Below, in pieces: positions 2,067 through 22,300 of a stretch of DNA of 64,000 nt; the first letter of the stretch is position 1, and each line of letters starts with the position of its first letter. A program made the position numbers and the translations under genes. Source of the stretch: a virus; the IMG/VR virus record IMGVR_UViG_3300031344_000007, positions 7,083 to 71,082 of that record; one strand, written 5' to 3'. The notes under the pieces are model-generated. The model saw only the letters and a list, made by a program, of their open reading frames with translations. It made no database searches and was not told where the DNA came from.

Positions 2067-2084
2067 ATGACATATATTAAAAGC

Positions 2085-3610: not shown

Positions 3611-3619
3611 AAAAAAATA

Positions 3620-4669: not shown

Positions 4670-4712
4670 GATTATATAATTAATCTATTTAATAACATTT
4701 TTTTATAAATAC

Positions 4713-4741
4713 AAAAAAAGCGAAGAAAATTCTTCGCTTTT
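4713..4741 (-). terminator. Rho-independent terminator
   Basis: AAAAGCGAAGAA-TT-TTCTTCGCTTTTTTT downstream of the RNA ligase. Confidence 0.75.
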
Positions 4742-4766
4742 AAATACTATGACAATATAAAATGAA

Positions 4767-5861: not shown

Positions 5862-5862
5862 A

Positions 5863-6732
5863 TTAATTTCCTCTTTCTTTTGGATATTGAAAGATTTTGT
5901 TTCTTTCTATAAATATTTTTCTCAATTTTTTTGTTTCAGTATTATTCATACCTAATACATATGCATATTTATGTTTAGGTTTCATTTCTCTACTTTCACA
6001 AGATAATAAATATTCTTTTGAAAGTTTTCTTATTTGTAATGCAATTTCTTCTGGCATTTTATCAAACATTACACTATCACCATTTTGCCATTCGTCATGC
6101 CAAATGATTTCATTTTCTTTTGCAAGTCTTTTATAGACTGACCTCGCTCGAAAATATCTATCAGATACCCATCTTCCAGTTTCAATTTTATATTGATTTT
6201 TTGCACCAGATTTTTTACCTAAATAATAAAAATTACATGCTTGATAAATTGTACCTAATTCTTTTGCTTCAACATCTGAATAAGCAACAAATAAACGATA
6301 TTGTGTATTTTTTACCATCCAATTAATTGTAAACATAATTAAAGAACTTCCTAAATTTTTTGGTGACCAACTGATACAAGCACCTCTACTTATTAATCTT
6401 TCAATTTTTTTTGTATCTTCTCCTAATAATTTTGAAAATACACTTGGCATATCAATAATTACTACACCAGCCAAAATTCCTTTATATCTTGCTGTAAATA
6501 TGTGTGTTGGGTATAAACTTACTCTTTGCAACCATTCATGTCTTTCAATAAATTTTTTAATTTCATCAAAACATGTTTTCTTATCTTCATTCTGAAAAAC
6601 AAAATCACCAACTTTTAATTTTTTTGCTTCATCAATAGTTATATTCGCTTGCTTTAAATCATTGGTCAAATTATTTAACCTGATATCATATTGCCAACAA
6701 TGTTGTTGATTATAATTATTAATCATTTCCAA
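5863..6732 (-). CDS. Mom-like (GNAT-fold) DNA-modification acyltransferase
   Basis: LISRGAC..PKNLGSSLI, VAYSD...GTIYQACNFYYLG, typical of the Mu Mom family. Confidence 0.7.
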   Translation of the reverse strand: MEMINNYNQQHCWQYDIRLNNLTNDLKQANITIDEAKKLKVGDFVFQNEDKKTCFDEIKKFIERHEWLQRVSLYPTHIFTARYKGILAGVVIIDMPSVFSKLLGEDTKKIERLISRGACISWSPKNLGSSLIMFTINWMVKNTQYRLFVAYSDVEAKELGTIYQACNFYYLGKKSGAKNQYKIETGRWVSDRYFRARSVYKRLAKENEIIWHDEWQNGDSVMFDKMPEEIALQIRKLSKEYLLSCESREMKPKHKYAYVLGMNNTETKKLRKIFIERNKIFQYPKERGN

Positions 6733-7024
6733 TAATTTTAATTTTTTTTGCTAAAAACCATTTACCACCTTGATGTATTGGTCTATTAAATTCTGAATAT
6801 TCTTTCATTTCAACTTTAAGCCAAATTCTATTTTTATTACTTAAATGCGGTGCTTCTGGTTTTTCAGTACAATGCCAAAATGGTCGTACTTTATATCCTT
6901 TAGTCGGATAACAATTTGCTTCTAGCCATGCATTTCTTTTTAATTGTTCCGATTTATTAATAAAAAGTGATGTTATTTCACCAGATTTTAATTCTCTAAA
7001 TAATTTATACGCAATTTTTGACAT
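6719..7024 (-). CDS. Hypothetical protein
   Basis: 101-aa ORF (AYKLFR...WHC..KPEAPHL), TATATTTG promoter upstream. Confidence 0.6.
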   Translation of the reverse strand: MSKIAYKLFRELKSGEITSLFINKSEQLKRNAWLEANCYPTKGYKVRPFWHCTEKPEAPHLSNKNRIWLKVEMKEYSEFNRPIHQGGKWFLAKKIKIIGND

Positions 7025-7103
7025 AATGTTACAAATTTATTTGTTTTTAATATATGCAAATATATAAAAAAATTAAAGAATCACAGAGTATTTATATAAA
7101 ATT

Positions 7104-7550
7104 ATGTTTATGGGTGGTTTAAATATTAATAACTTCATTAAAAAAGAGGTGCAAAATTTTCTAAATGAAGCATCAGTTGTAAAAGATAATAGATTTCATT
7201 TCAATCAAAGATTAAATAATTCTTCATTTTCTAATTATGATACATTTACTTCAGAATTTGATGCAAATATTATTGAAAGTGACATTGTTATAACATGGAT
7301 AGTTTTATTTTGGTTAAATGATATGGGAATTGAAAATTTTGTAATAGAAGTGGAAAAAGCAGAAGGAACATTTACAATTGAAATGCGTGATAAACATAGT
7401 GATGAAATAAAACAAAATACACCAAAAAATATTAATGACTTTAATTGGAAATTTGTTATTGATGATGCTGTTTTACAAAAAAGCGGTTCGTTATATATTT
7501 CAGGATTAGAATTTGATTTTAAATCACAAATTTGTAAATTAAAATTTTAA
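7104..7550 (+). CDS. Hypothetical late protein
   Basis: 148-aa ORF, GTATTTATA at 7088; N-terminal FIKKEVQNFLNE motif. Confidence 0.6.
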   Translation: MFMGGLNINNFIKKEVQNFLNEASVVKDNRFHFNQRLNNSSFSNYDTFTSEFDANIIESDIVITWIVLFWLNDMGIENFVIEVEKAEGTFTIEMRDKHSDEIKQNTPKNINDFNWKFVIDDAVLQKSGSLYISGLEFDFKSQICKLKF

Positions 7551-7569
7551 ATAAAAAAATATAATTATT

Positions 7570-7821
7570 ATGAAAAAAATTTGGGAAGAAATTAAAGCAT
7601 GGTTCATTACAAAATGGACCGCATTAAAAGCATGGTTCATTGCAAAACCATTGGCTTGGATTAAAAAAAATTGGTTTATGATTGTCAATTACATAGTAAT
7701 AGTATTGGCATACAATAATATTTATGGTAAAACTAATGCCGAATTTGCTGAAGTTTTATTAGGACTTTGGATATTTACATCTGTTGCATATGCTGGATGG
7801 AAACTGTTTATAAAAAAATAA
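7570..7821 (+). CDS. Small membrane protein (two TM segments)
   Basis: Amphipathic Trp/Lys-rich N-terminus plus two hydrophobic stretches. Confidence 0.6.
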   Translation: MKKIWEEIKAWFITKWTALKAWFIAKPLAWIKKNWFMIVNYIVIVLAYNNIYGKTNAEFAEVLLGLWIFTSVAYAGWKLFIKK

Positions 7822-7865
7822 ACATGTTGGAATTCTAAATCTGTTATTGATAATGTTTTTATTCG

Positions 7866-7936
7866 TAGCGATAATAAGAATCGAACTTATATGTCCTCCT
7901 TATGAGAGAGTTATCCTACCATTGAATGATATCGCT
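7866..7936 (-). tRNA. tRNA with CAT anticodon (Met, or lysidine-Ile)
   Basis: Acceptor AGCGATA/TATCGCT, loop CT CAT AA, T arm ATAAG-TTCGATT-CTTAT. Confidence 0.82.
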
Positions 7937-7939
7937 ATA

Positions 7940-8269
7940 TTATGTTGAGAATTTAATCTCAACATAAGTTCTTTTGTGTCCAATTCTATGTTCTTCAACA
8001 ATTTTAATTGGTTTTCGCATCCATTGTTTTTTATTTTTAGAAACCAATTTCCAGTTTGGAAATCTTGTATTAGTTCCTTTTCTTTTACCATGACAAGTTT
8101 CCATATCATCGTAAATAATTCCGCCATACCATTTTTTATCATTGTTTTCATTTTGATGATAACCACAGTATGAACAATGAATTTTTCCTGTTTGTTCAAG
8201 ATGCAATTTATATGCACGATTGAATTCACCACGATTTGTGGTTGTTTTAACTAAATTTTTACTTCCCAT
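7940..8269 (-). CDS. Basic hypothetical protein with CxxCxxH
   Basis: 109-aa ORF, IHCSYCGYH, preceded by a uORF and hairpin. Confidence 0.65.
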   Translation of the reverse strand: MGSKNLVKTTTNRGEFNRAYKLHLEQTGKIHCSYCGYHQNENNDKKWYGGIIYDDMETCHGKRKGTNTRFPNWKLVSKNKKQWMRKPIKIVEEHRIGHKRTYVEIKFST

Positions 8270-8292
8270 TTTTCTTGTTACGCTTTAGTGCG

Positions 8293-8319
8293 TTACAAGA
8301 ATTCAAAATTTTTTTTCAT
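8293..8319 (-). CDS. Putative uORF MKKNFEFL
   Basis: Its stop codon lies in the 5' arm of hairpin TTCTTGTAACGC-ACTAAA-GCGTAACAAGAA, which abuts the next ATG. Confidence 0.45.
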   Translation of the reverse strand: MKKNFEFL

Positions 8320-8490
8320 AATTTTATATTTTTGAGATTATATCTTTATGTTCTTTTAATGACCATTCAATACTTTTAAATGTTAATTCCATTATTTCAG
8401 GATTAGCTAAATCAATTTCAGATTCATCAATTTCATCTTCATAATTTTTGAATCTTATTTTACTATTTTTTCTTAATCCAAAATTCATTG

Positions 8491-8979
8491 TTATTCGCTT
8501 TTAATTATTACTGATTTAGTATATTTTTTATCATTCCATTCATCATGCCAACGATTATTAAATTGGTCAAATGTAAATAATTTAATTCCACCAATATATG
8601 GGTCATAAATAAATACTCGAAAATCATCGAAACCAAATACAATACAGTAATGTCCATGACTCCAAGTATTTTTCCAAGATTTTCTATATTCTTTTCTTGC
8701 TTGTAAAAGAACAATTACTGGTTTTTTATTGTTTATTTGATTTTTTAAATATCTTATATTTTTATGTTCTTCTAATTTGGTTTCTAAACCAAATTTTTTT
8801 AGTAAAGTAACTAATTTTTCTGGACATAATCCATCAATTGGTGAAATCTTTGATATCTTTAAAAGTGTATTATAATCAACTTTTATTTTAGAATGTTTTA
8901 AGTGTGACCATGCTACTGCAAGACTACAATCAAAATCATAATTCTGTTCACGCATGGGAATTTGTAATATCATGTACAT
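8491..8979 (-). CDS. Peptidase C39-like cysteine protease
   Basis: Q..DFDCSLA, KPVIV, HGHYCIVFGFD, IYDP. Start trimmed to MYMIL because the longer ORF runs through the tRNA. Confidence 0.8.
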   Translation of the reverse strand: MYMILQIPMREQNYDFDCSLAVAWSHLKHSKIKVDYNTLLKISKISPIDGLCPEKLVTLLKKFGLETKLEEHKNIRYLKNQINNKKPVIVLLQARKEYRKSWKNTWSHGHYCIVFGFDDFRVFIYDPYIGGIKLFTFDQFNNRWHDEWNDKKYTKSVIIKSE

Positions 8980-8997
8980 AAAATTTCCCTCTATTTG

Positions 8998-9080
8998 TTT
9001 CCTTGGTGGGAGTCGAACCCACACGCCCGAAGGCACTCGCTTTTGGGGAGAGCATGTGCTGCCAATTTCATCACAAGGAA
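8998..9080 (-). tRNA. tRNA-Leu(CAA), with C33 and an anticodon-stem mismatch
   Basis: Acceptor TTCCTTG/CAAGGAA, loop CC CAA AA, variable arm GCC-TTCG-GGC. Confidence 0.8.
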
Positions 9081-9081
9081 A

Positions 9082-9198
9082 TTATACTTTTTTCTTTATA
9101 ATTCGTCTATAGTTTATTTTTTTCCTTTCAGTTATTTTAACCGATTTTCCACATCCACAATCATCTTCTTTTTGAAGTGGTTTTCTAATATTTGTCAT
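9082..9198 (-). CDS. 38-aa basic peptide (MTNIRKPLQKEDDCGCGKSVKITERKKINYRRIIKKKV)
   Basis: Below the ORF-track cut-off; has its own GTATTTATA motif at 9207-9215. Confidence 0.5.
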   Translation of the reverse strand: MTNIRKPLQKEDDCGCGKSVKITERKKINYRRIIKKKV

Positions 9199-9357
9199 AA
9201 TTTTAATATAAATACTTGGTTTGTTTATTTGTAGCTCTGACGGGATTTAAACTCTTACGAACTTTTGGTTCAAGTTGTTGTAATAATTTTTCTGCGTTCT
9301 TTCCAATTTGCCACAGTATTATATTTTCATATGAATACTGTGGAATTGGAAATTATG

Positions 9358-9719
9358 TGGTGGAGATGCGGGGCATCGATTCCCCGGTGTTGCAATGTGA
9401 TTAATAAGTTTTCTACAAGTTTATTTGATTTTCATAAATCAGCAAAATGTTAATTGTATTTTTCCAGAACAACTACAAAACTGTCCAGAACTTATTTTAC
9501 TTCCTTTCTGATTTGGGAAGTTTTTTGCTGTTTATTTTTTCCTGTTACGCAATTGAAAGTACGGCACTCTTTACAAATACGCTGTTTCCTTTTGTCAAGG
9601 AAGTAGGAATAGACATAATGTCTTCTGCATTTATTGTTTTGAACCTTTTTAAAGTAGTCCGATTCAACTACTACTTGCTTACATCATTTTTCTACATACA
9701 GTCAAATCCATTCATCCCC
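9358..9719 (-). ncRNA. ssrA: tmRNA
   Basis: 5' GGGGATGAATGGATTTGAC, 3' CATCTCCACCA, G3:U70 pair, resume context ATAAAT-GCA, tag ORF 9628-9545. Confidence 0.93.
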
Positions 9720-9761
9720 ATTATTTTAAAGAACTTTTATTCTAATAATAAATAGTTGTTA

Positions 9762-10487
9762 TTATTTTTTATTTTTCGGTTCTTTTCTAAAACTCCATTT
9801 ATAATCAAAACCGTGTTGTTCAATTTTATATTTATCAGCCACTTCAATAATTTCTTTTTCACCTCTACCAAGAACACCACCAATAAACATACTTATTTCC
9901 TGAAATGCTTGAAAACTATCAAATACTCTATAAAACAGATAATCACTTAAAATTGGATTAATAAAAAGTTTTTCATCACGTCTATAATAATGACCAACAC
10001 TTTTTCTATTATAATCACTATCATAAATAAAAATAGGTGCTTTAAAATCTCTAAATAATTGAAGAGCATCGTAATTTTTAATATAATTATAGTGTTCTTC
10101 AAGATTTCCATACCAACCTTTATTATCAATAATTGTTTTTATTAAATCAAAATCATATGTAATTGTAGTTATAAGTGTTTCTGGATAATCTTTTTTGTTT
10201 TCATAATATAATTTCCAACCAATATATAATTTTCCACAAAATCCAATAATAAAAGAACTACAATTTTGATAATTTTTATATTGTTCATTTTTTATTGTAT
10301 GATTTCCAATATTTAAAAAAGGCGAATCTTTACTTTTTTTAAAAGAAAATCCCTTTCTTTGAAATATTGATGGGAATTTTTTTTCTTCAACCTCAATTAT
10401 TTCACGGTCATAAACAAGTGTCTTATCAATACCCATAGTACCAACAACACCATCGTAAAAATCTTTTTTCTTCGAAATTATTAACAT
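9762..10487 (-). CDS. Conserved-looking phage hypothetical protein
   Basis: 241 aa; KDFYDG, IGFCGKLY, KIEQHGFD..WSFRK. Confidence 0.65.
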   Translation of the reverse strand: MLIISKKKDFYDGVVGTMGIDKTLVYDREIIEVEEKKFPSIFQRKGFSFKKSKDSPFLNIGNHTIKNEQYKNYQNCSSFIIGFCGKLYIGWKLYYENKKDYPETLITTITYDFDLIKTIIDNKGWYGNLEEHYNYIKNYDALQLFRDFKAPIFIYDSDYNRKSVGHYYRRDEKLFINPILSDYLFYRVFDSFQAFQEISMFIGGVLGRGEKEIIEVADKYKIEQHGFDYKWSFRKEPKNKK

Positions 10488-10556
10488 AATTTTACAAATT
10501 TAGTCTATTATATAAATATATGCAAATAAAAAATAAGTTTTATTTAGATATCAAAG

Positions 10557-10639
10557 CACACCGAGAACGATTCGAACGCTCAAAACCATTACTGGTCGCA
10601 CTTTTGGAGAGTGTTTGGCTTACCAATGCCTACCGATGT
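10557..10639 (-). tRNA. tRNA-Trp(CCA) with a long variable arm
   Basis: Acceptor ACATCGG/TCGGTGT, G73, loop CT CCA AA, variable arm ACCA-GTAA-TGGT. Confidence 0.82.
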
Positions 10640-10662
10640 GTATATTACTGAAATAATTTTTG

Positions 10663-10744
10663 TAGCTCTGGTCGGATTCGAACCGACACGCCCGAAGACA
10701 TTTGCTTTTAAGACAAACACGTCTACCAATTCCATCACAGAGCC
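10663..10744 (-). tRNA. tRNA-Leu(TAA)
   Basis: Anticodon arm TTTGT-CT TAA AA-GCAAA, class II variable arm, T arm GTCGG-TTCGAAT-CCGAC. Confidence 0.92.
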
Positions 10745-10750
10745 ATATTG

Positions 10751-10821
10751 TGGATACTTCGGGACTCGAACCCAATCTTCTGAGTGCAAAACAGACGTTC
10801 TTTCCTTTGAACTAAAGACCC
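10751..10821 (-). tRNA. tRNA-Ala(TGC)
   Basis: G3:U70, A73, loop TT TGC AC; some stem mismatches. Confidence 0.8.
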
Positions 10822-10883
10822 ATATTAAATTTCTATGCTTTCCATTACTTGGAACTATGAAATTTTTAACAGTCTTTCTACCG

Positions 10884-10957
10884 TGGAATCGAAGGGCATC
10901 GAACCCTCACTCTCCTGATTGCAGGTCAGGTGCTTTAGCCAGTTAAGCTACGACCCC
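10884..10957 (-). tRNA. tRNA-Ala(TGC), with C33
   Basis: Acceptor GGGGTCG/CGATTCC with G3:U70, anticodon arm CCTGA-CC TGC AA-TCAGG. Confidence 0.88.
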
Positions 10958-10970
10958 AATTATTATTTAG

Positions 10971-11049
10971 TAGCCAAGAAGAGACTCGAACTCTCACCAA
11001 TGATTATGCGTTCTAAGCGCACAGACTTTACCATTTTGTCCACTCGGCT
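10971..11049 (-). tRNA. tRNA-Leu(TAG)
   Basis: Anticodon arm GTGCG-CT TAG AA-CGCAT, T arm GAGAG-TTCGAGT-CTCTT. Confidence 0.88.
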
Positions 11050-11054
11050 AAATG

Positions 11055-11146
11055 TACCCTAAATCCGACTCGAACGGATATTTTAGTTTTCACTAAAAAA
11101 TTGCTTCTTAGACAATCGTGTCTCACTCCAGTTGCACCATTAGGGC
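11055..11146 (-). tRNA. tRNA-Leu(AAG)
   Basis: Acceptor GCCCTAA/TTAGGGT, anticodon arm ATTGT-CT AAG AA-GCAAT, long variable arm. Confidence 0.85.
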
Positions 11147-11251
11147 ATTTAATTATCGGTTGTAGAACAAATATCGCCTTTTTAACCGATAAATATTAAA
11201 TATCGGTAATTAAGGCGATATTATGATTGTATTTGGCACTACAATCTTTTG

Positions 11252-11326
11252 TATTCCCTGTAGGCTTCGAACCTACGACATCTTGCTTGTAGGGCAAGCA
11301 CTCTGACCCATCTGAGTTAAGGGAAT
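11252..11326 (-). tRNA. tRNA-Val(TAC), with C33
   Basis: Acceptor ATTCCCT/AGGGAAT, anticodon arm CTTGC-CC TAC AA-GCAAG. Confidence 0.9.
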
Positions 11327-11426
11327 ATATTTGTTAGTAAAAGCCAGCATTAAATCAAATTTTATATGATAATGTTAGTATTTCTGTAAGTTTTGACATT
11401 ATTTTAATGAATCTTATGTAAAATAA

Positions 11427-12392
11427 TTATTTCCAAACACTATTTCTATTATTACCTTTACCAGCACATTGTCTTGAGCAATATATATTTTTTGATTTAC
11501 ATTGCTTTCCACAGACTTTACAAAAATTAGTTAACTTATTATATGGATTATCATCATATAAATGAATATAATTTTTACCATATTTTTCAATTATATATGA
11601 AAAAATATGTTTTAGTTCGTTTTTTTTCATAACAATTAATGGTTTTTTAAAAGAATTATATTTTAAAATATCTTTTTTCCTTTCATATCCTTTTATTTCA
11701 TAATAAACATTGTCGATAATAAAATCAGGATAATATTTGTGTTTTATATTATCAATGTAATATTCGAATCCATTATTATTTCTTTCAAAAATAATTTTAT
11801 GGTCTATATTATAGATAACAAATGCTAATTCATAACTACTATCACACCAATATCCTTTATACCAACCAGATTTACCTCTACCAGAACCTTTTCTATAACC
11901 ACCCTTACTAACACCTCTATATTTACAATTTTTATCATTACAATAACATTTTTTTGAACAATATATTCTATTATTTCCAGATTCTCTCACCCAAAAATCA
12001 TTTTTACAAATAGGACAAGTTTTTAATATTCTTTTATTTAAATTTTTTTGTACCCACCTTTTATTTTTATCGTGTAACAAATAATTTTTTTTATTAATAA
12101 AACCTATTTTAAGTTTTGTTTCTTCACTATGTTTTCTAGTGTTTGCACAACTTCTTGAACAAAAATATTTTTCTTTTTTTGGAATATTAACGTTATATTC
12201 ACTAATTTCAAATTCGCTTTTACATGTAAAACATTTAACTTTAAAAATTTTCCATTTGTTTAAAACAGTTATTTTTTGTTTTTCAATACTTTCTAATGTA
12301 GGAATATATTTTGTAGGGTTGTGTTTATTTCTACATTTTGAATTACAATATTTATTTTTTACTTCTTTACCACAATTTAAACATTTATTCAT
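11427..12392 (-). CDS. Free-standing PD-(D/E)XK endonuclease with Cys-rich Zn fingers and a NUMOD3-like motif
   Basis: DSSYE...YYPDF...YEIKG; repeated CxxC..(Y/F)CSxxC; HSEETKLKI. Confidence 0.78.
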   Translation of the reverse strand: MNKCLNCGKEVKNKYCNSKCRNKHNPTKYIPTLESIEKQKITVLNKWKIFKVKCFTCKSEFEISEYNVNIPKKEKYFCSRSCANTRKHSEETKLKIGFINKKNYLLHDKNKRWVQKNLNKRILKTCPICKNDFWVRESGNNRIYCSKKCYCNDKNCKYRGVSKGGYRKGSGRGKSGWYKGYWCDSSYELAFVIYNIDHKIIFERNNNGFEYYIDNIKHKYYPDFIIDNVYYEIKGYERKKDILKYNSFKKPLIVMKKNELKHIFSYIIEKYGKNYIHLYDDNPYNKLTNFCKVCGKQCKSKNIYCSRQCAGKGNNRNSVWK

Positions 12393-12467
12393 ATATAATA
12401 TTTTATATAAATACTATATACTCTTAAAAAGAATCGAAATTGTTTAATTAGAATGATTTAAATTTTG

Positions 12468-12551
12468 TACTGCATGAGGAATTCGAATCCTGCGAAGCCT
12501 TTCGGCACTTGCTTGAGAGGCAAGTCGCTTTAACCACTTGCATAATGCAGC
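12468..12551 (-). tRNA. tRNA-Glu(CTC) with a long variable arm
   Basis: Acceptor GCTGCAT/ATGCAGT, A73, anticodon arm CTTGC-CT CTC AA-GCAAG, variable arm GCC-GAAA-GGC. Confidence 0.82.
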
Positions 12552-12630
12552 AAATTAATTATTTCGTTTTTCTATTATTAATTCATTCAATTTTAAAAAC
12601 AATATAACAAATAGTTATCTTAATTATCAA

Positions 12631-12683
12631 TGCTGAGAACGTAGAATGAGAATCTTTTGTCCTAACCATTAGACGAACCGAGC
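12631..12683 (-). pseudogene. Truncated conventional tRNA-Glu(CTC) remnant
   Basis: GCTCGGT TCGTCTAATGGTTAGGAC...AGA-TT CTC AT-TCT; T arm missing. Confidence 0.6.
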
Positions 12684-12687
12684 ATTT

Positions 12688-13083
12688 CTATTTAAATTGT
12701 TTTGGAAGTAAAAAATGCTTATATTGAAAATGAATTTTAGGTTTAAGTGATGTTTCAAAAAATTCTCCTTGTTCTTTCATATCTTCATCATCTTCTTCAT
12801 ATTTCCAAACAACTAAAATATTGGTAAGGGATTTTGCAACTTTTTGTAATATATTAAAAAGTGCTTTATTTGATGATGAATTAATATATTCAAATTCACA
12901 AGTAATTGTTAAATCAACATCTGAATGGTTTTTAATAAATTCATCTAATGCTTTATCAATATTATCAAAGAACATTAAGGAATTCTCAGGAAATGATTTT
13001 CCAGTTATTGTAAGAATACCTCTTTTAATATTAAAAAAAACTGCGGGTGTGTTGTTCGTTGCATTAATATACAAATTTTCCAT
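12688..13083 (-). CDS. SiaC-family (DUF1987) phosphoprotein
   Basis: ATNNTPAV, GKSFPEN, EYINSSSNK, WKYEEDDEDMKEQGE. Start set at MENLY because the upstream extension overlaps the tRNA. Confidence 0.8.
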   Translation of the reverse strand: MENLYINATNNTPAVFFNIKRGILTITGKSFPENSLMFFDNIDKALDEFIKNHSDVDLTITCEFEYINSSSNKALFNILQKVAKSLTNILVVWKYEEDDEDMKEQGEFFETSLKPKIHFQYKHFLLPKQFK

Positions 13084-13112
13084 AATTAAAATTAGTTTTA
13101 ATTTAACATTTG

Positions 13113-13196
13113 TACAGCGTGTGGGATTCGAACCCAGCGAAACCTTTCGGTACAAGATTGAAGGTCTTGCCACTTTAACCGCTTGTATAACGCTGC
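13113..13196 (-). tRNA. tRNA-Glu(TTC) with a long variable arm and C33
   Basis: Acceptor GCAGCGT/ACGCTGT, A73, anticodon arm CAAGA-CC TTC AA-TCTTG, variable arm ACC-GAAA-GGT. Confidence 0.82.
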
Positions 13197-13200
13197 ATAA

Positions 13201-13294
13201 AATATTAATGTCGCTCTTCCTTGCTGAGTCGTACACCTAATTCAGAATTTTCATCTGAGGTCACAAGAATCGAACTTGCGTCCACATTAATATT
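13201..13294 (-). ncRNA. Circularly permuted tRNA-mimic RNA (YrlA-like order: T arm, closed acceptor, D arm)
   Basis: Terminal 11-bp stem AATATTAATGT/ACATTAATATT encloses GCAAG-TTCGATT-CTTGT, a closed acceptor-like stem and CTC-AGCAAGGAA-GAG. Confidence 0.65.
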
Positions 13295-13298
13295 TTGC

Positions 13299-13369
13299 CG
13301 AGACTGAGAGATTCGAACTCTAACCCACTGCGTGACAGGCAGTTATACTAGCCATTATACTACAGCCTC
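13299..13369 (-). tRNA. tRNA-Asp(GTC)
   Basis: Anticodon arm ACTGC-CT GTC AC-GCAGT, G73, T stem apparently 4 bp. Confidence 0.88.
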
Positions 13370-13382
13370 GAAAATTTCCAAC

Positions 13383-13395
13383 ATGTCAAAGAACA
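13383..13395 (-). promoter_or_regulatory. boxA-like antitermination site TGTTCTTTGACAT
   Basis: Resembles rrn boxA (TGCTCTTTAACA); similar GTTCTTTRA at 9724-9735 and 15263-15274. Confidence 0.55.
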
Positions 13396-13432
13396 TTATA
13401 CGAACAATATTAATTTTTGTTACATTCTTTTC

Positions 13433-13473
13433 AAAAAAAAATCTCGACCATTTTTAAGTGGTCGAGATTTTTT
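13433..13473 (-). terminator. Attenuator terminator of tRNA operon 2
   Basis: AAAAAATCTCGACCA-CTTAAAAA-TGGTCGAGATTTTTTTTT; 5' arm complementary to TGGTCGAGA in the leader. Confidence 0.88.
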
Positions 13474-13490
13474 CATTAAGAAAGGAAATA

Positions 13491-13586
13491 TTATCTTTCT
13501 CGACCAAATATAACAATATCTTCTGCATCTGCCCATAATAGGACAACTGCCATCTCTGATACTAATATGTCGAGTAATCTTTTCAT
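13491..13586 (-). CDS. Leader peptide 2 (MKRLLDILVSEMAVVLLWADAEDIVIFGRER)
   Basis: 31-codon ORF between a TATCTTTG promoter (13642-13649) and the terminator. Confidence 0.8.
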   Translation of the reverse strand: MKRLLDILVSEMAVVLLWADAEDIVIFGRER

Positions 13587-13678
13587 TATTTTTTAATTAT
13601 TAAATTTGTTTTACTAACTTCGTTTAATTCTAAATACGTTGCAAAGATATAAAATGTTACAATATATACAAACTTTTT

Positions 13679-14050
13679 TTAAAATATTTTTTTATAAGTA
13701 TCAAATAATGATTTAATATTTCGACTTCCAACCGGATTCATTGAGTGTATTAGAATTGTTTTAGGTATTTCTAATTTATTGTCAATACAATAATATATTA
13801 ACCATTTAGCACAATGATAACCAGTTTTTTCTGGATTATCATCATAATTAGCAACTCTTTCATAATCAATATAATTAAGGTCATGGTCAAAACTAATAGT
13901 TTCTGGAATACCATTTTCTTGAATCATTTTTACAAACTCATCATAATTTCTTACAATTTTCCAATCAAGAATATTATATGTTGGATTCCCTAAATAATAA
14001 AAAGAATCTACAGGTTCTCTGAAGTCATCGAGATAAAGATTATATATCAT
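13679..14050 (-). CDS. Cyclic-phosphate-processing receiver-like domain protein
   Basis: LYLDDFR, ISFDHDL, TGYHCAKWL, IHSMNPVG motifs. Confidence 0.72.
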   Translation of the reverse strand: MIYNLYLDDFREPVDSFYYLGNPTYNILDWKIVRNYDEFVKMIQENGIPETISFDHDLNYIDYERVANYDDNPEKTGYHCAKWLIYYCIDNKLEIPKTILIHSMNPVGSRNIKSLFDTYKKIF

Positions 14051-14117
14051 AATTTTTAATTATTAATTTGCAAAGATAATAAAAAAATAGATTAAATTTT
14101 ATAAAAAATATAAATAG

Positions 14118-14188
14118 TTCCCTTATTAGGATTTGAACCTAAATATTCATTTTCAGAGAATGAAATGTTACCATTACATCATAAGGAA
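14118..14188 (-). tRNA. tRNA-Gln(CTG)
   Basis: U1:A72 acceptor TTCCTTA/TAAGGGA, anticodon arm TCATT-CT CTG AA-AATGA. Confidence 0.88.
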
Positions 14189-14194
14189 ATATTG

Positions 14195-14267
14195 TTGCCA
14201 TGTACAGATTCGAACTGTAACTAATTGATTCAAAGTCAATTGTGCTAATCCATTACACAACAAGGCA
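14195..14267 (-). tRNA. tRNA-Gln(TTG)
   Basis: Anticodon arm ATTGA-CT TTG AA-TCAAT, T arm TACAG-TTCGAAT-CTGTA. Confidence 0.9.
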
Positions 14268-14273
14268 ATATTG

Positions 14274-14345
14274 GGGGTGATGAGGTATTTGAAACCTCCC
14301 CGACAGAATCACAATCTGGCATGCTACCGCTACACCAATCATCCC
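14274..14345 (-). tRNA. tRNA-His(GTG)
   Basis: Encoded G-1 and C73, loop TT GTG AT. Confidence 0.88.
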
Positions 14346-14352
14346 ATATAAA

Positions 14353-15201
14353 TTATATATTATTATAATATTCTAAAAATTTATTTATTTCATTCTTTAT
14401 ATATTGTTTACCATTTTCAGTATTAATATTTTTCCATTTTATTCTATAAACAACGTATCCATTATCATTTAATATTTTATCTCTAATTACATCATGTTCT
14501 TTTCTATAATTATGTTGTTTACCATCAATTTCTAAATCAATATTTTTATCTTCAATATAAAAATCTAAAAAATAATTACATGAATCGGTTAAGCCTAAAT
14601 TTCTTTTATTTACTGGATAATTATGTTTATAACCAATATTATTATTTTTTAGTACATTAATAAAAAACCGTTCAGGATAACTAATAATATTTCTTGCTGT
14701 CCAACCTTTATGAATACCATTTGCAATTCTTTTATTTATAAAATCTTTAGTATTATTACTTTTTAATTTTAAATGGCATTCTTTTGAACAACATTTAGAT
14801 TTACTTGGTTTTCCACTTAAACATTTTTGAGAAATAAATTCATTTTTACATATTACACATATTTTTTTAGTTTCACGATTAACTTTATTATTAATAAATC
14901 TATTGTTTAATAATGAATCACTTATTTTATTTTTTGTTTCGTTACTTAATTTTCTTTTTTTATTATTAAATGTTGCAGCACATGAACTATTACAAAATTT
15001 GTTTCTACTATTTATTTTTTTATTACAATTTAAACAATATTTTATTTTTTTATTAAAATGTGATACATTAATATCATTTTCTAATATAAATTCGTTTAAT
15101 TCTTCATATACTCTAGCATTTGAAAATCCAAAATATTTTAATAATATTTCATTTTTAGATTTAGATGTTTCAATAATCTCAATTAATTTTTTTTCACACA
15201 C
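14353..15201 (-). CDS. Free-standing DUF559/Vsr-like endonuclease with Zn-finger and NUMOD3-like motifs
   Basis: YFLDF...LEIDGKQH...HDVIRDKIL...GYVVYRIKW. Confidence 0.78.
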   Translation of the reverse strand: MCEKKLIEIIETSKSKNEILLKYFGFSNARVYEELNEFILENDINVSHFNKKIKYCLNCNKKINSRNKFCNSSCAATFNNKKRKLSNETKNKISDSLLNNRFINNKVNRETKKICVICKNEFISQKCLSGKPSKSKCCSKECHLKLKSNNTKDFINKRIANGIHKGWTARNIISYPERFFINVLKNNNIGYKHNYPVNKRNLGLTDSCNYFLDFYIEDKNIDLEIDGKQHNYRKEHDVIRDKILNDNGYVVYRIKWKNINTENGKQYIKNEINKFLEYYNNI

Positions 15202-15345
15202 AATATTTAAATTTATTATAAATACTGTGGATGTCGAAAAAATACGAGTTGAACTATAGGTATTTCAAAGAACTTTGCTAAATTTTTAGTTAACCTTTTG
15301 GTTATGCAGTGATTACTACGTGCAAGTAATTTAACATCAATCACT

Positions 15346-15430
15346 TCGGGGTGACACGGTTCGAACGTGCGAGGGATTTCTCCACCTGCTTCCAAGGCAG
15401 GACTGCTACCAACTACAGACCTACACCCCG
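15346..15430 (-). tRNA. tRNA-Pro(TGG) with a long variable arm
   Basis: Acceptor CGGGGTG/CACCCCG, A73, anticodon arm CCTGC-CT TGG AA-GCAGG, variable arm GGA-GAAA-TCC. Confidence 0.85.
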
Positions 15431-15441
15431 ATATATATAAT

Positions 15442-15470
15442 AAAAAACCCCATTCGTTTGAATGGGGTCT
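15442..15470 (-). terminator. Attenuator terminator of tRNA operon 3
   Basis: AGACCCCATTC-AAAC-GAATGGGGTTTTTT; 5' arm complementary to TGAATGGGG in the leader. Confidence 0.88.
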
Positions 15471-15499
15471 ACTAATTGCTCTCTCACTTCTTAAAAAAC

Positions 15500-15568
15500 T
15501 TAAGCATAGTTTCCCCATTCAGTCACCTGTGGATGTTGTTGGGGGTTAATATGCATTAAATTTTTCAT
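15500..15568 (-). CDS. Leader peptide 3 (MKNLMHINPQQHPQVTEWGNYA)
   Basis: 22-codon ORF between a TATATTTG promoter (15606-15613) and the terminator; PQQHPQ run. Confidence 0.85.
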   Translation of the reverse strand: MKNLMHINPQQHPQVTEWGNYA

Positions 15569-15792
15569 AACTAAAATTTTATAACTATGTTTAACAAAAT
15601 CATTGCAAATATATGCATTAAAATTATAAATACAAGCATTTTTTAAAAAAATTTTTATTAATAAGAAAAAATGTGTGAATCATGTAACATATTATCGGAA
15701 ATGTGTAACCTTTTTTAAATACCCTAAATGTATTTATTAGTGTTAGATAGCCACATTTTTCAATAAAAATTTAACACCAATAAAATAAATCA

Positions 15793-16212
15793 ATGAAAAC
15801 TACTAAACAAATTTGGACGCTTGAAGCTCTTAAGGAGCATTATGATATTGTATTGAAAAATCAATATGAACACTATAATGTATTGCTTGCTGAACGAGAT
15901 GAACGAGTAACACAAAGATATCAAGCAATGGAATTGGCAGTAAATAAAGCAGAAACTGCAACTGAAAAGCGTTTTGAAGGTGTAAACGAATTTCGTGCAC
16001 AACTTGGTGACCAGTCAAGAACACTTATGCCACGTATTGAAACAGAAGTGTTATTAAAAAATGCTAACGATAAAATTGACGCACTTACAATTAAAGTTGA
16101 AAAAAGCGAAAATATTAAAGCAGGTGGAAATACAGTAATTGCATATATTGTTGCTGGTATATCATTAATTGTAACACTTATTACATTATTGGGAAAATTT
16201 AAAATAATATAA
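15793..16212 (+). CDS. Coiled-coil protein with C-terminal TM helix
   Basis: AVNKAETATEKRFEGVNEFR, hydrophobic C-terminus. Confidence 0.65.
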   Translation: MKTTKQIWTLEALKEHYDIVLKNQYEHYNVLLAERDERVTQRYQAMELAVNKAETATEKRFEGVNEFRAQLGDQSRTLMPRIETEVLLKNANDKIDALTIKVEKSENIKAGGNTVIAYIVAGISLIVTLITLLGKFKII

Positions 16213-16234
16213 AAAAAATTGATTATAATTAAAA

Positions 16235-16387
16235 ATGAAAATTAATATAGATAATGTTAATATGCCATATGAGTCATATGAAGTACATTCACTTAAAATT
16301 CTCAATAAAATAAAAACTGATTTAGTTTTACGACTTAAATATATTAATGAACGAATTATAAATTTAATAAAGAAAGAAAATGAGTAA
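16235..16387 (+). CDS. Small hypothetical protein (50 aa)
   Basis: MKINIDNVNMPYESYEV..., fills the gap and overlaps the next start. Confidence 0.45.
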   Translation: MKINIDNVNMPYESYEVHSLKILNKIKTDLVLRLKYINERIINLIKKENE

Positions 16388-16805
16388 TAATGAAAAAAAT
16401 TATGATGATATTCTATTAATTGAGAATATGACATTAAATGAATTTGATGTGAAGTTTATTAAAAATTTATTAATACGTCAGGATGAAATAAAGGAAATGG
16501 AATTATCAAATATGTTAAAAAATAATGTAGATACTATTGTTAATGCAATTATTACCGAATTAAATAGTAGAGAAGAAAGAATATTTGATGCATTAAAGTA
16601 TCAAGAAAATAAAGTACATAATGCATTAAAAATTCAAGAAGATAAAGTACATGATGCAGTAAAAGAACAAGAAATTAAGGTTCTTGCAGCAGTAAAAAAT
16701 CAAGAAGATAAAGTATTAAGGGCTTTAAAAGAACAAGAAGATAAAGTATTAAAGGCTTTAAAAGAACAAGAAGATAAAGTATTAAAGGCAATTAATGGTC
16801 AATAA
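16380..16805 (+). CDS. Coiled-coil protein with 11-aa tandem repeats
   Basis: About six copies of QEDKVxxAxKx. Confidence 0.65.
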   Translation: MSNNEKNYDDILLIENMTLNEFDVKFIKNLLIRQDEIKEMELSNMLKNNVDTIVNAIITELNSREERIFDALKYQENKVHNALKIQEDKVHDAVKEQEIKVLAAVKNQEDKVLRALKEQEDKVLKALKEQEDKVLKAINGQ

Positions 16806-16810
16806 ATAAT

Positions 16811-18040
16811 TTGAAAATGAAAAATTCCATTAGAATACTTTTATTGGAAAATTCCAATGTTCAAGCAAAGACGATACTTCAATTATTAAGAAACGGTGAA
16901 AACAATATATCAGTATTGATTGCCGAAAACAGAAAATCTTATATTGAATTATTAAATGATAATGCTATTGATATTATCATATGTAATCATGTATTACCAG
17001 AAGGTTTCAATTCATTAGAAGCAATGAGAATTGCTAAGAATATTTATCCAAATATTCCATGTATATTACTTTCAGGGTCAATTAATGATGATTTTGCTAT
17101 CGAGTTACTTAAAGAAGGATTTGATGATTACGTTAGTAATGACCATTTATTCTTTTTACCATTTTCAATTGAAAACGTTTTTCTTAAATATTCATATAAG
17201 GCAGAAATTACTAAATTAGAATCTGAAATCAAAATATTGCAAGAATCTTATAATATAATTGATGATGAGAAAAGAAGTATGACACAAAGTATTATTTTTG
17301 CTGAAAGAATTCAAAGTTTAACATTACCCAAAATTGATTTATTACTTAATAATTTCAAAGAAGCATTTATATATTATAAACCAAAAGATATTGTAAGTGG
17401 AGATTTTTATTGGTTTTCAGCAGATGGTGATAATGTTGTTATTGTGGTTGCCGATTGTACTGGACATGGTGTATCTGGTTCATTATTAGCCATGCTTGGT
17501 TCTAATTTTTTAAATGAAATTGTTGAAAATGAAAATAATTATGATAATCCAACAGATATACTTATAAAACTTGATGCTAATCTTTGTAAAGTATTAAAAC
17601 AATCAGTAGAGAATAATTATCAAGATGGAATTGATTTAGCTTTAATTTCCATTAATAAAAAAGAAAAGAAAATACGTTTTAGTGGATGTAATGGTTCATT
17701 ATTATATATTATGAAAGGTCAAAAGAAAATCAACATATATAAAGGAAATTCATATTTAATTGGTGGTATTGATTATTATAGTATTAATAAAAAATTTGTT
17801 ACAGAAGAAATAAATTATGAAACAGGTGATGTAATTTATATGCACACAGATGGATATGTTGACCAATTTGGTGGAGATAATAATAAAAAATTTAATAAAA
17901 ATGTTTTTTATAATTTATTATGTTCATTTCAACATTTAAGTTTACAATATCAATGTCAATTAATCGAACAAAGATTATTAAAATGGAAAGGTTGTTTCCC
18001 ACAAACAGATGATATTTTAGTTGTTGGCATTAAATTATAA
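16811..18040 (+). CDS. Receiver-like domain fused to a SpoIIE/PP2C phosphatase
   Basis: KPKDIVSGDFYW, ADCTGHGVSG, DGIDLA, TDGYVDQFGG, QTDDILVVG. Confidence 0.88.
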   Translation: MKMKNSIRILLLENSNVQAKTILQLLRNGENNISVLIAENRKSYIELLNDNAIDIIICNHVLPEGFNSLEAMRIAKNIYPNIPCILLSGSINDDFAIELLKEGFDDYVSNDHLFFLPFSIENVFLKYSYKAEITKLESEIKILQESYNIIDDEKRSMTQSIIFAERIQSLTLPKIDLLLNNFKEAFIYYKPKDIVSGDFYWFSADGDNVVIVVADCTGHGVSGSLLAMLGSNFLNEIVENENNYDNPTDILIKLDANLCKVLKQSVENNYQDGIDLALISINKKEKKIRFSGCNGSLLYIMKGQKKINIYKGNSYLIGGIDYYSINKKFVTEEINYETGDVIYMHTDGYVDQFGGDNNKKFNKNVFYNLLCSFQHLSLQYQCQLIEQRLLKWKGCFPQTDDILVVGIKL

Positions 18041-19332: not shown

Positions 19333-22300
19333 TTAATCTAAAACAATGGTATATTCATTTGTACTAATAATAAAATTTCTTATATAAACTGTACTTCCTA
19401 CTCCAGCTTGTACATAAATTGTTATATCATCACCGGGAGACCAACCTGCTATATCTTCACTATAAGTAACATAACTTGTAGTTGCAGTTCGTGGTGTTCC
19501 TACTCCACTAGCACCTTTTTCAATTAGTGCTGCTCCACCTGCTCCACTTGCATATTTAACATCAAATTTAATTCTATATGTTCCTGAATAAGCATTTATT
19601 TTAATATCTTTTAACTTGGTTGGAGTAGTAGATGTTGATGTTCTTTCAGTTAATGATTGAGCTATAATAGAATCTCCTGCTAAACTAACTATATTAGTTA
19701 CTCCATAAATAGTTGTACCTGATATAATTGGACTTTTTACACTTGTTGCTGCATAAAGATTTCCTGATGTTGTATCAATTCTAACAACATTAGTAGTACC
19801 AGCAGCATTTGTAAAAGTAAATCCTGAATAACTATCAACTCTTGGTTTAAAAGTTAAATTACCAGAATTATTATAAAGAGTATGACTATAATCACTAATA
19901 CTTGTAGATGTTCCACCCATTACCAATGAATTTGCACCTATTATTCTTGCACTACCATTAACATCAAGCATATACATAGGTGCTGTTGCAAAACCTATTG
20001 CCATACTTCCATTTTGGGCAATGCCATCCACGTAAGTATAACCCCCACCATTTCTATCAAAAGCAAATCTCAATAGTGAAGTTGGAGTAGTACCTTTAGT
20101 AGATAAGTTTTCTATTATCCAGTTCATCGTATTACTAACTGCTACTGCAGTTGTATTCCAAGCCGTACCAGATAATCTAATACGGGGAGATATCTGGTCT
20201 TGTCCTACTAAAGCAGCAGTAGTATTGGTTACAACTAATCCATCAGTTGATGTTAGTGTTAAAGCTGTTTTTGTTGATGCTACATAGCTAAATGCTCCTG
20301 TAGTCGCAGCTAATGCAGCAGTCGTTATATTTCCAGCATAAAGATATGATTGAGTTCCTAAAGTAATAACTGGTAGGGCATTCGTAGCACTTGAGCCAGC
20401 TATAGACCATGACATTAAGGTAATACCATCCGCAGTTTGAATTTGATTTGATGCTAATTTTAAATTACCATCAATTAATAAATCGCCTGTTCCTACTGTT
20501 TTATCTTTTATACTAATAGATGTTATAGTTATTGTTTGAGATGCGGGAGCTATAATAATTAGTTTACCAGTTGTTGTAGCTAATATATCACAAGTATATG
20601 TTCTTGCACTTAGTAAATAATAAAGACCAGAAACTCCTCCAAGTTGATAATTTATTGAACTACCTACGGAAACAGCACTAACTATAATGGTTACTCTATA
20701 TGTATGTCCTATTTGAATGTTTGATGTTCCTGTTGGAGTTGCAGTTAATGAATTAGTACTTGCTGTTTTTACTAAAGTACCGCCAGTTGCTTTCCAACCA
20801 CCAACACCAGCATCATACCCTAATGTCCAAAATGATGTGGTTAATGGTGGTGCTAATTCTGCACCAATGGTGGCATAAGTTTTTGCATTTTGTCCTGCAG
20901 TATTTGAACCAATATCTAACCCTATTGTAGGTGAAGCATTTCCTATTCCTATTTTTCCACTATTTAAAATTCTCATTGCTTCAGTATTACCATTATTTCC
21001 AACTTTAAAAACAATATCAGCACCTGTTGTACCACTTGCAGAAGTTGATATTATATTTAATCCTGAATTTGTTGAGGTTGAACCAATTATTGTTTGACCA
21101 CCACTAAGACCAGTAATTAAATTATTTTTAACGATTCTGCTACTTAATGTTATACCTGATGTTGCACCAGTAATTGCATTAGTTATTGCAGTATTGGTTT
21201 TACCTGTATAACTATTAATTTGTGTTTTATTATAATAATTTGCAGGTTCAGTAGTACCAGTATAATAATTAATTTGTGATGTTGTACTATATTGACTATG
21301 TGTATGTCCAGTTTGAAAGATACTTAAAGTCGTACCTGATAACCATGCAGGTTTATTAGTTAATGTAGTCCAAGATGGTGTTGCTATAATTGGAGAATAT
21401 ATTGTAACAGTATTTGTAGCTCCAGTTTTAATAATAGTTGCTCCACTTTGAATAAATGTATAATAATTGGTTTTAGTTAAACCTGAAACTCCTTGTATAC
21501 CCTGAATGCCTTGACTTCCAGTATCACCCTTATCACCTTTAATTCCCTGTATGCCTTGAATACCCTGCGCTCCAGTTGCACCACTTAAACCACGTATACC
21601 TTGTATACCCTGAGCACCTGTAGCTCCTGAAATGCCTCTTATGCCCTGTATTCCCTGTATACCTTGAGCACCAGTAGCTCCTGAAATGCCTTGAATCCCT
21701 TGACTTCCAGTATCACCTTTATCGCCTTTAATTCCCTGTATGCCTTGTATACCCTGTGCTCCAGTTGCGCCACTAATACCACGTATACCTTGAATTCCCT
21801 GTATACCCTGAGCACCTGTAGCTCCACTAATACCACGTATACCTTGGATGCCTTGAGCACCAGTAGCTCCACTTAAACCACGAATACCTTGAATACCCTG
21901 TATACCTTGAGCACCAGTTGCACCACTAATTCCTCTTATGCCTTGGATACCCTGACTTCCAGTAGCACCACTTAAACCTCTTATGCCCTGTATTCCCTGT
22001 ATACCTTGAGCACCAGTAGCTCCTGAAATGCCTTGAATGCCTTGTGCTCCTGTAGCTCCTGAAATGCCTCTTATGCCTTGTGCACCTGTAGCTCCACTAA
22101 TACCTTGTATTCCTTGTGCACCAGTGTGTCCTGAAATTCCTTGAATACCTTGTATACCCTGTGCACCAGTAGCTCCACTTAAACCTCTTATACCTTGTAT
22201 ACCTTGAATTCCCTGTATACCTTGTGCACCTGTAGCTCCACTTAAACCACGAATACCCTGTATACCTTGAATTCCCTGTGCTCCAGTTGCACCTGAAATT

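Follow-up and report, generated by a model that had tools for sequence, protein, structure and literature searches.

The stretch of DNA analysed here (hereinafter the window) comprises 64,000 nucleotides (nt), bases 7083-71082 of a 71,082-base IMG/VR virus contig (IMGVR_UViG_3300031344_000007). The GC content of the contig is ~26%, and its CheckV completeness of 22% implies a phage of roughly 300 kb. The window contains 19 transfer RNA (tRNA) genes, all of them at 1145-15431 on the minus strand, and the contig has three further tRNA genes within 600 bases of its start. Upstream of one tRNA operon lies a short region, leader B, which has the anatomy of a leader-peptide attenuator and is the subject of this report. 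Specifically, the minus strand carries, in this order, a promoter, a 5' untranslated region (UTR), an open reading frame (ORF) of 31 codons, a terminator, a boxA-like element, and tRNA-Asp, which begins 63 nt past the T-run of the terminator (Table 1). The promoter type and the boxA-like element both suggest a Bacteroidota host.

The promoter of leader B is a strict match to the Bacteroidetes -33/-7 consensus, for which the available part of PMC6847099 also gives the spacing to +1. Transcription probably starts near 13637, which places the final G of the promoter motif at -5 and leaves an A/T-rich 5' UTR of 51 nt. Because the strict motif is no commoner in the window than expected by chance (4 found, 7.1 expected), the argument for this promoter is one of position and duplication. 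The start codon of the ORF has an A at -3 and is not preceded by a Shine-Dalgarno sequence, as is usual in Bacteroidota according to the same part of PMC6847099. Codons 4-23 form a sensor block, and the tail of the ORF (codons 24-31) encodes a segment that can pair with the terminator.

Table 1. Coordinates of leader B, its sibling units, and the downstream genes (window numbering unless the contig is named)
Feature	Position	Strand	Description
Promoter B	13672-13642	minus	Bacteroidota type (-33/-7), TTTG-N19-TATCTTTG; strict motif match
Leader ORF B	13586-13491	minus	31 codons and stop, MKRLLDILVSEMAVVLLWADAEDIVIFGRER; sensor block, codons 4-23, LLDILVSEMAVVLLWADAED
Segment 1	13574-13569	minus	CTCGAC, 5' side of predicted protector helix 1:2; from minimum-energy folds and RNAalifold consensus
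Segment 2	13506-13498	minus	TGGTCGAGA; can pair with segment 1 or segment 3; exact complement of segment 3
Spacer element	13487-13476	minus	TTCCTTTCTTAA; conserved, between leader stop and terminator
Terminator B	13472-13433	minus	intrinsic, AAAAATCTCGACCA-CTTAAAAA-TGGTCGAGATTTTT and further T's; 14 bp, -18.1 kcal/mol; T-run of nine T, 13441-13433
Segment 3	13467-13459	minus	TCTCGACCA, inside terminator 5' arm; exact complement of segment 2
Segment 4	13450-13442	minus	second copy of TGGTCGAGA, in terminator 3' arm
boxA-like element	13396-13376	minus	ATGTTCTTTGACATGTTGGAA, rrn-type; after the terminators of units B and D
Proximal operon	13370-10556	minus	Asp, Glu(ttc), SiaC-family ORF, Glu(ctc), endonuclease-like ORF, Val, Leu(aag), Leu(tag), Ala x2, Leu(taa), Trp
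Distal genes	10525-7865	minus	promoter-like site 10525-10495, ORF, tmRNA, Leu(caa), peptidase C39-like ORF, tRNA(CAT)
Attenuator A	15635-15445	minus	promoter-like site 15635-15606; ORF 15568-15500, MKNLMHINPQQHPQVTEWGNYA; terminator 15470-15445
Attenuator C	2297-2088	minus	promoter 2297-2267; ORF 2230-2138, MFTFGTYYYGKKSYKKQLMRIGNAVFKIQC, beginning MFTFGTYYYGKKSYKKQ; terminator 2113-2088
Unit D (outside window)	contig 789-661		ORF MMKTLTTNIFSSISTTTSRIGRTIFCSNFIGRNSNVSGILFS; then Cys, Ile, Ser, then contig end

The codons of leader B match the tRNA genes that follow it. An initial annotation, made from the letters of the window, had proposed that 19 of the 22 residues at codons 4-25 are L, D, V, E, M, A, or W, the amino acids of the downstream tRNAs, and a recount gives the same figure, with I, S, and I as the exceptions. 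The downstream genes are also those that had been listed, namely tRNAs for Asp, Glu (two), Val, Leu (four), Ala (two), and Trp, and one tRNA with a CAT anticodon. Against a background of the 40 ORFs of at least 150 codons in the contig (18,084 codons), the enrichment that had been proposed as a check is indeed found: 20 of 30 residues (start codon excluded) are cognate, compared with a background frequency of 0.321 (binomial P=1.1e-4). At the codon level under strict wobble, the count is 17/30 compared with 0.275 (P=7e-4). The contig has 330 ORFs of 20-45 codons that start with ATG; only three of them, leader B itself included, reach the cognate fraction of leader B. The annotation had judged this enrichment less decisive than that of other leaders, and we agree that, taken alone, it is moderate evidence.

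Stronger evidence comes from comparing leader B with its three siblings in the contig, each of which likewise has a promoter-like site, a short ORF, and a terminator ahead of tRNA genes. The tRNAs of unit A are Pro, His, and Gln (two), and those of unit C are Tyr, Lys(ttt), and Lys(ctt). The leader of unit D is found in identical form in three related contigs, where its tRNAs are Thr (two), Cys, Ile, Ser (two), Phe, Gly, Met, Asn, Thr, and Arg, and the tRNA set for leader D was taken from these relatives. The four sets are disjoint save for Met and jointly cover all 20 amino acids. When each leader is scored against each tRNA set, the leaders A, B, C, and D contain 7/21, 20/30, 9/29, and 37/41 residues cognate to their own set (P = 9e-4, 1.1e-4, 0.018, and 6.6e-9, respectively; Fisher combined 1.3e-13), whereas all 12 comparisons of a leader with the set of another unit give P >= 0.37. 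On the minus strand from 600 to 16500, three of the five terminator-like hairpins are the attenuators (the other two are at 4741-4716 and 1137-1108), and three of the six promoter-like sites lie directly upstream of leaders.

Units B and D share their outer parts. A 46-nt promoter block is identical between them (contig 815-883 and window 13629-13697), as is a 21-nt element after the terminator (contig 577-597 and window 13376-13396), while the ORFs and terminators that lie between the promoter block and the boxA-like element differ. The pair thus looks like a duplicated cassette with a rewritten sensor. In the relatives, two tRNA-Thr genes are located between the D terminator and boxA; these genes are missing from this contig.

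Homologues of leader B were collected from other contigs. Scans of IMG/VR and metagenome contigs with exact and degenerate patterns gave 10 distinct leaders; for the metagenome pattern, 8 of 57 loci were true B-type leaders, and the rest were long or unrelated short ORFs, many of them in GC-rich DNA. Seven further B-type leaders were found in loci retrieved with patterns for the other leader types and are hence unbiased by the B pattern. In all 17 distinct variants the parts are arranged alike and the first gene is tRNA-Asp; Glu, Val, Leu, Ala, and Trp come next wherever the locus extends far enough. In the sensor block (from codon 4 through the fifth codon after Trp), 308 of the 345 residues are in the cognate set, 81-95% per variant, while the tail that encodes segment 2 is at the background level (46/122). 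Positions 9-15 vary among the variants within the set, and Trp is followed by ADAED, VDDAE, VADED, AAEED, AVDED, AVVED, or AADED. A composition that is kept while the sequence is reshuffled is expected of a codon sensor rather than of a functional peptide. Insertions and deletions inside the ORF are of 6, 3, and 3 nt; gaps in the untranslated spacer are of many lengths.

The sibling leader types are similarly associated with their tRNAs. We found 24 distinct A-type leaders (...PQPQQHPQ..EWG...), of which the 22 with downstream sequence are followed by Pro/His/Gln tRNAs, and 12 distinct C-type leaders (..GTYYYGKKSYKK..), 11 of which are followed by Tyr/Lys tRNAs. The search patterns for both types required the conserved leader blocks themselves, not an association with tRNAs. 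A degenerate D pattern returned no new D-type variant among its 36 loci, of which 31 were long or other ORFs and four were unrelated short ORFs; one more D-type variant (L253) was obtained with a generic terminator/ORF/tRNA pipeline. The viral contigs that carry the A-, B-, and C-type variants are as long as 364 kb. Three named Bacteroidota genomes, and 401 sampled ones, gave no match to the A-type pattern. One A-type locus, L224 (an IMG/VR contig, leader near 2317-2342), is the only one with a CGC Arg codon beside the Pro/Gln/His block, and its operon is the only A-type operon that starts with tRNA-Arg(acg). It may be a case of a leader tracking a gained tRNA, a single but suggestive one.

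The leader B transcript is predicted to form three overlapping helices, namely a protector (1:2), an antiterminator (2:3), and the terminator (3:4). As the initial annotation had proposed, segments 2 and 3 are exact 9-bp complements, and this pairing shows compensatory changes among the 17 variants. Helix statistics were obtained from the 17-sequence alignment with 500 shuffles; the variants are related by descent, so that neither cells nor shuffles are independent and the shuffle counts given here are not probabilities. In the terminator, 94.1% of cells are paired, both-sided changes occur at five pairs (reached by 0/500 shuffles), and the covariation score is 0.194 versus 0.096. The antiterminator has an invariant 6-bp core flanked by covarying pairs; both-sided changes likewise occur at five pairs (1/500 shuffles), the score is 0.127 versus 0.041 (0/500), and one pair takes four types (AU, CG, UA, and GC). 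When the partner strand is shifted by 1-3 columns, the pairing is lost in both helices. In the window, the core has changed jointly, from GTCGGG to GTCGAG in segments 2 and 4 and from CCCGAC to CTCGAC in segment 3. Protector helix 1:2, with 90.8% of cells paired in the 17 variants, appears in single-sequence minimum-energy folds, and RNAalifold unaided predicts this helix together with the terminator. The CTCGAC/GTCGAG pairing proposed earlier is present in the minimum-energy fold, whereas its bulges had been omitted; the 3' side is GATATTG-TT-ATAT-TTG-GTCGAG. What has been described up to here, namely anatomy, codon/tRNA match, conservation, and covariation, can be read from the sequence itself.

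The position of the cognate codons fits the geometry of a stalled ribosome. Because folding of the full-length transcript is silent on a kinetic switch, we replaced it by folding of a transcript that ends just before the terminator 3' arm, with a 28-nt footprint around each A-site codon. In this model, pairing of the G/C bases of the terminator 5' arm with upstream sequence, essentially segment 2, has P ~1.0 for A-site codons 1-23, 0.78 at codon 24, ~0.45 over codons 25-31, and 0.25 when the stop codon is in the A-site. The cognate block likewise ends at codon 23, the limit of the stall-permissive stretch. The same is seen for leader A, where cognate codons end at codon 14 and P drops from 0.7 to 0.2 at codon 15, and for leader C, where they end at codon 16 and P drops from 1.0 to 0.6 to 0.1. 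The stop codon directly follows the segment-2 core in 13/17 B-type variants, and in the window it is no more than 6 nt away; a ribosome terminating there would thus mask segment 2.

Taking these features together, namely a promoter-proximal ORF, cognate codons, a terminator, an antiterminator, and a masking geometry, we consider it quite probable that leader B, located in front of a phage tRNA operon, belongs to the ribosome-mediated (leader-peptide) transcription attenuators of the trp/his/ilv type and exerts feedback control of tRNA supply. The multi-amino-acid attenuator of the initial annotation is supported by the order of parts, the codon match of four units, the kept composition, the covariation, and the limit of the cognate codons at the stall-permissive stretch.

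From these sequences we infer the following course for leader translation, stalling, read-through, Nus recruitment, and the physiological trigger. Transcription would start at the Bacteroidota-type promoter, and a ribosome would translate the 31-codon leader, whose codons 4-23 are nearly all Leu, Asp, Val, Glu, Met, Ala, and Trp. When decoding is rapid, the ribosome would reach the end of the ORF and cover segment 2, segments 3 and 4 would pair, and RNA polymerase would terminate at the T-run. When any cognate charged tRNA is scarce, the ribosome would stall in the sensor block and leave segment 2 free to form the antiterminator with segment 3; the terminator would be blocked and RNA polymerase would continue. 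The boxA-like element, transcribed next, probably recruits host Nus factors, and the Nus-modified RNA polymerase would pass the structured multi-kilobase array of tRNAs, ORFs, and transfer-messenger RNA (tmRNA). The outcome would be negative feedback, with tRNAs made when their codons limit decoding and shut off once supply is restored. The three sibling units would act likewise on the remaining tRNA blocks.

Several observations weigh against attenuation by a stalled ribosome. The cognate set of leader B is broad, making up 32% of ordinary protein, so the enrichment of the window's own leader is moderate. GTT and GTC, which account for three of the four Val codons in the window, are unreadable by tRNA-Val(UAC) under strict wobble. 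One relative (L012-type) has Ala codons in its leader and, according to ARAGORN, no tRNA-Ala in its operon. Protector helix 1:2 shows no compensatory change in the 17-variant alignment, and the kinship of the variants, noted above, tempers the helix statistics. A sigma-70-like hexamer pair is located between the terminator and boxA in the window (13423-13395); it is not conserved in relatives and differs from the Bacteroidota promoter type. The equilibrium fold of the full transcript is the terminator at every ribosome position (P 0.91-0.96), an outcome that, on the folding model, is expected for a kinetic switch and is uninformative. Finally, the truncated transcript forms the antiterminator in the model even when free of ribosomes. 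The two folding results mean that the switch must be kinetic, as in the classic cases, and that energies alone are not proof of it.

Three other explanations were weighed against attenuation by leader translation. The ORF could be an ordinary small-protein gene with its own terminator, the tRNAs being transcribed from a separate promoter and the codon match being a coincidence or the composition of a hydrophobic-acidic micropeptide. The LLWADAED motif is well conserved in 10/17 variants, and the sigma-70-like site between terminator and tRNA in the window could supply such a promoter. This explanation is nonetheless hardly credible, for four unrelated leaders match their own tRNA set and none other, and the residues after Trp are permuted within {A,V,D,E}, which fits selection on composition. 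In addition, a plain terminator has no need of covariation between segments 2 and 3, and in the related loci L035 and L068 boxA directly adjoins the terminator and the tRNA begins no more than 30 nt further on, leaving no room for a promoter.

The same alternative helices, which exist irrespective of translation, could also serve an attenuator that works through RNA or protein alone (a riboswitch, a T-box-like element, or an RNA-binding protein) with the ORF untranslated; T-box elements, for instance, sense tRNA directly. We consider this unlikely, since the in-frame composition, the 3-nt periodicity of the indels, the stop codon after segment 2 (13/17), and the coincidence of the sensor block with the stall-permissive stretch would all be without purpose if the ORF were not translated. 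A permissive Rfam scan of window positions 1-17000 (E <= 1) returned only tRNAs and tmRNA, with no leader family, T-box, or riboswitch. A constitutive partial terminator, acting with boxA as a dampener or insulator that fixes tRNA transcription at a low level and senses no decoding, would agree with the equilibrium folding, which always favours the terminator, and with the lack of a terminator-like hairpin after operon A, which may allow upstream transcription to enter the region. It leaves the codon match, its specificity for each operon, and the covarying antiterminator unexplained and is very unlikely.

Classic leader-peptide attenuators include trpL, hisL, pheL, and leuL, with thrL and ilvL/ivbL as multivalent examples. 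Like the trpL/hisL-type leaders, leader B has a short promoter-proximal ORF rich in regulatory codons and overlapping helices 2:3 and 3:4 with a predicted helix 1:2, in which 3:4 is the terminator and a stall at a hungry codon would favour 2:3; like thrL and ilvL, it covers several amino acids. The leader-peptide attenuator pheL is described in the available part of PMC3082878. Unlike the biosynthetic leaders, the phage leaders precede tRNA genes rather than genes for enzymes, and their product would act directly on the sensor. Also different are the number of amino acids per leader (seven in leader B and nine in its sibling D), the phage origin, the four parallel units that together cover all 20 amino acids, and the boxA after the terminator. 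Leader B would work similarly to the leader families of Rfam (Trp, His, Thr, Leu, Phe, and others) and is a member of no curated family.

Components of the translation apparatus are known targets of such control. The phenylalanyl-tRNA synthetase genes pheST are attenuated via the pheM leader, and the his operon is derepressed in hisR (tRNA-His) mutants, showing that leaders of this kind respond to tRNA abundance and not to amino-acid supply alone. The phage leaders would resemble pheM in the leader-peptide attenuation of a translation component, while the targets of pheM and the his leader are a synthetase or biosynthetic enzymes. To our knowledge, no tRNA gene is controlled by leader-peptide attenuation, and full-text literature searches, which left subscription journals mostly outside their coverage, found no description of it. 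T-box riboswitches likewise make read-through of a terminator in front of translation-related genes depend on the state of a specific tRNA pool. They bind uncharged tRNA via a specifier codon and a T-box bulge, without translation, and occur mostly in Firmicutes; the phage leader region differs in having no T-box match in the Rfam scan described above.

The boxA-like element was compared with boxA elements of ribosomal RNA operons. Its first nine bases, UGUUCUUUG (13395-13387), retain G2, C5, and U6, which the available part of PMC3177189 gives as key boxA contacts of NusB/NusE, and like the rrn-type boxA treated there it lies early in a long structured-RNA transcript. Different from rrn is its location in a tRNA operon directly after a regulated terminator, the likeness being one of sequence and position. 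The TTCTTTGACA core is present in 15/17 B-type variants, and the other two have the variant TTCATTGA. A motif scan of one genome per prokaryote species found at least 120 loci, mostly in Bacteroidota among the matches listed, including Pedobacter, Mucilaginibacter, and Chitinophagaceae. In each of the eight loci (of at least 120) checked with Rfam, the motif is in the rrn 16S-23S spacer, 150-210 nt before 23S and between spacer tRNAs or 16S and 23S, and consists of the same 18-20 nt as the phage element. From position and likeness, we infer that the element is a copied host boxA, which would make escaped RNA polymerases processive.

If leader B works as proposed, several aspects would be new: tRNA genes as the target of an attenuator, a product that relieves the very stall that induces it, coverage of the code by four units, a phage as the carrier of the system, and coupling to an rrn-type boxA. 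Why phages carry tRNAs and how these are controlled is a long-standing question, and the proposals include codon compensation and escape from tRNA-targeting defences (available parts of PMC10264068 and PMC11464382). With a codon-matched attenuator, the phage would sense a shortage in decoding directly and respond with the tRNAs concerned. A textbook mechanism would also gain a new class of targets, stable RNA genes, and both leader-peptide attenuation and the use of an rrn-type boxA would be demonstrated for Bacteroidota phages. Rather speculatively, and we hold it to be possible at best, the four leaders may constitute a four-channel read-out of decoding for 20 amino acids, by which a jumbo phage switches on the tRNAs of the stalled block. 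Stalls might arise from anticodon-nuclease defence, from tRNA decay after host shut-off, or from the misfit of AT-rich codons, and the copied boxA might lock escaped RNA polymerases into an rrn-like Nus-modified state. They would then be the first tRNA genes under attenuation control, and the whole would be a circuit that replenishes tRNAs in response to defence. As compact sensors for small sets of amino acids, the leaders could serve as reporters of tRNA availability.

The extent of the operon downstream of leader B was proposed in the initial annotation to reach 7866. Co-transcription from Asp to Trp is likely because the proximal stretch (13370-10556) contains neither a terminator-like hairpin nor a promoter-like motif on the minus strand, while co-transcription beyond Trp is uncertain, with a promoter-like site at 10525-10495 just past tRNA-Trp. 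The distal ORF, tmRNA, Leu(caa), and tRNA(CAT) could be driven independently from this site; no terminator-like hairpin was found from 13433 to 7865 on the minus strand. The tmRNA, downstream of tRNA-Trp, is at 9719-9358 on the minus strand (Rfam 68.4 bits, E=4e-25), and ARAGORN places a tmRNA at the same relative location in the relatives L014 and L047.

Parts of the window between 7800 and 15700 are present in 24 sequencing runs, one of which is recorded as RNA (share 0.17). Four runs were compared, all in the form of contigs with pieces partly from relatives, from which RNA ends and read-through are unreadable. A BLAST search of window positions 13000-16000 against a phage collection found no close relative; the sole match in the collection is an endonuclease-like (DUF559) ORF with ~70% identity to Lak and other huge phages.

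Ile occurs 18 times in the sensor blocks of the 17 B-type variants and is always encoded by ATA. Most of these codons represent one invariant position (leader codon 7, window 13568-13566), which also lies inside helix 1:2. The invariant ATA codon would be cognate too if the tRNA(CAT) of the operon (7865-7936) were a lysidine-type tRNA-Ile2. This tRNA has no initiator-type G-C run in its anticodon stem and may be either Met or Ile2.

In the spacer between leader stop and terminator, most B-type variants, among them L012, L047, L229, L232, and L017, contain (A)CCTCCTTTCT(TA) at the matching place. The final 11 bases of a Pedobacter 16S rRNA (...ACCTCCTTTCT) have the identical sequence, and the element is thus an anti-Shine-Dalgarno look-alike; the copy in the window, TTCCTTTCTT, is imperfect. 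In several variants, boxA is also immediately preceded by a purine-rich AAAGGAG-like stretch that could pair with the spacer element across the terminator.

Between operon A and leader B, the minus strand encodes a protein with the Pfam domain cREC_REC (14050-13679; 'cyclic-phosphate processing receiver domain', E=3e-23), a family linked to RNA-repair systems. Its location beside tRNA operons makes a tie to tRNA damage or repair possible. After the last tRNA of operon A there is no terminator-like hairpin (14117-14050), and transcription past attenuator A may thus continue across the cREC_REC gene as far as leader B.

ORFs are interspersed among the tRNA genes at 12688-13098, 8491-8979, 14353-15201, 11427-12392, and 1222-1845, all on the minus strand. 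A SiaC-family regulatory phosphoprotein (E=1e-28) is encoded between the two tRNA-Glu genes, and the peptidase C39-like ORF overlaps tRNA-Leu(caa). A DUF559/NUMOD3 endonuclease-like ORF lies among the tRNAs, and two more Cys-rich ORFs resemble homing endonucleases. Five tRNA genes are longer than is usual for their types, namely Trp (84 nt, 10556-10639), Leu(aag) (93 nt, 11054-11146), both Glu genes (85 nt each, 12467-12551 and 13112-13196), and Pro (87 nt, 15345-15431), of which the Rfam tRNA model leaves Trp and Leu(aag) unreported; they may contain insertions or introns or may be miscalls. In base composition, a 4-kb stretch (20001-24000) has a GC fraction of 0.38, compared with 0.24-0.31 in the rest of the window.

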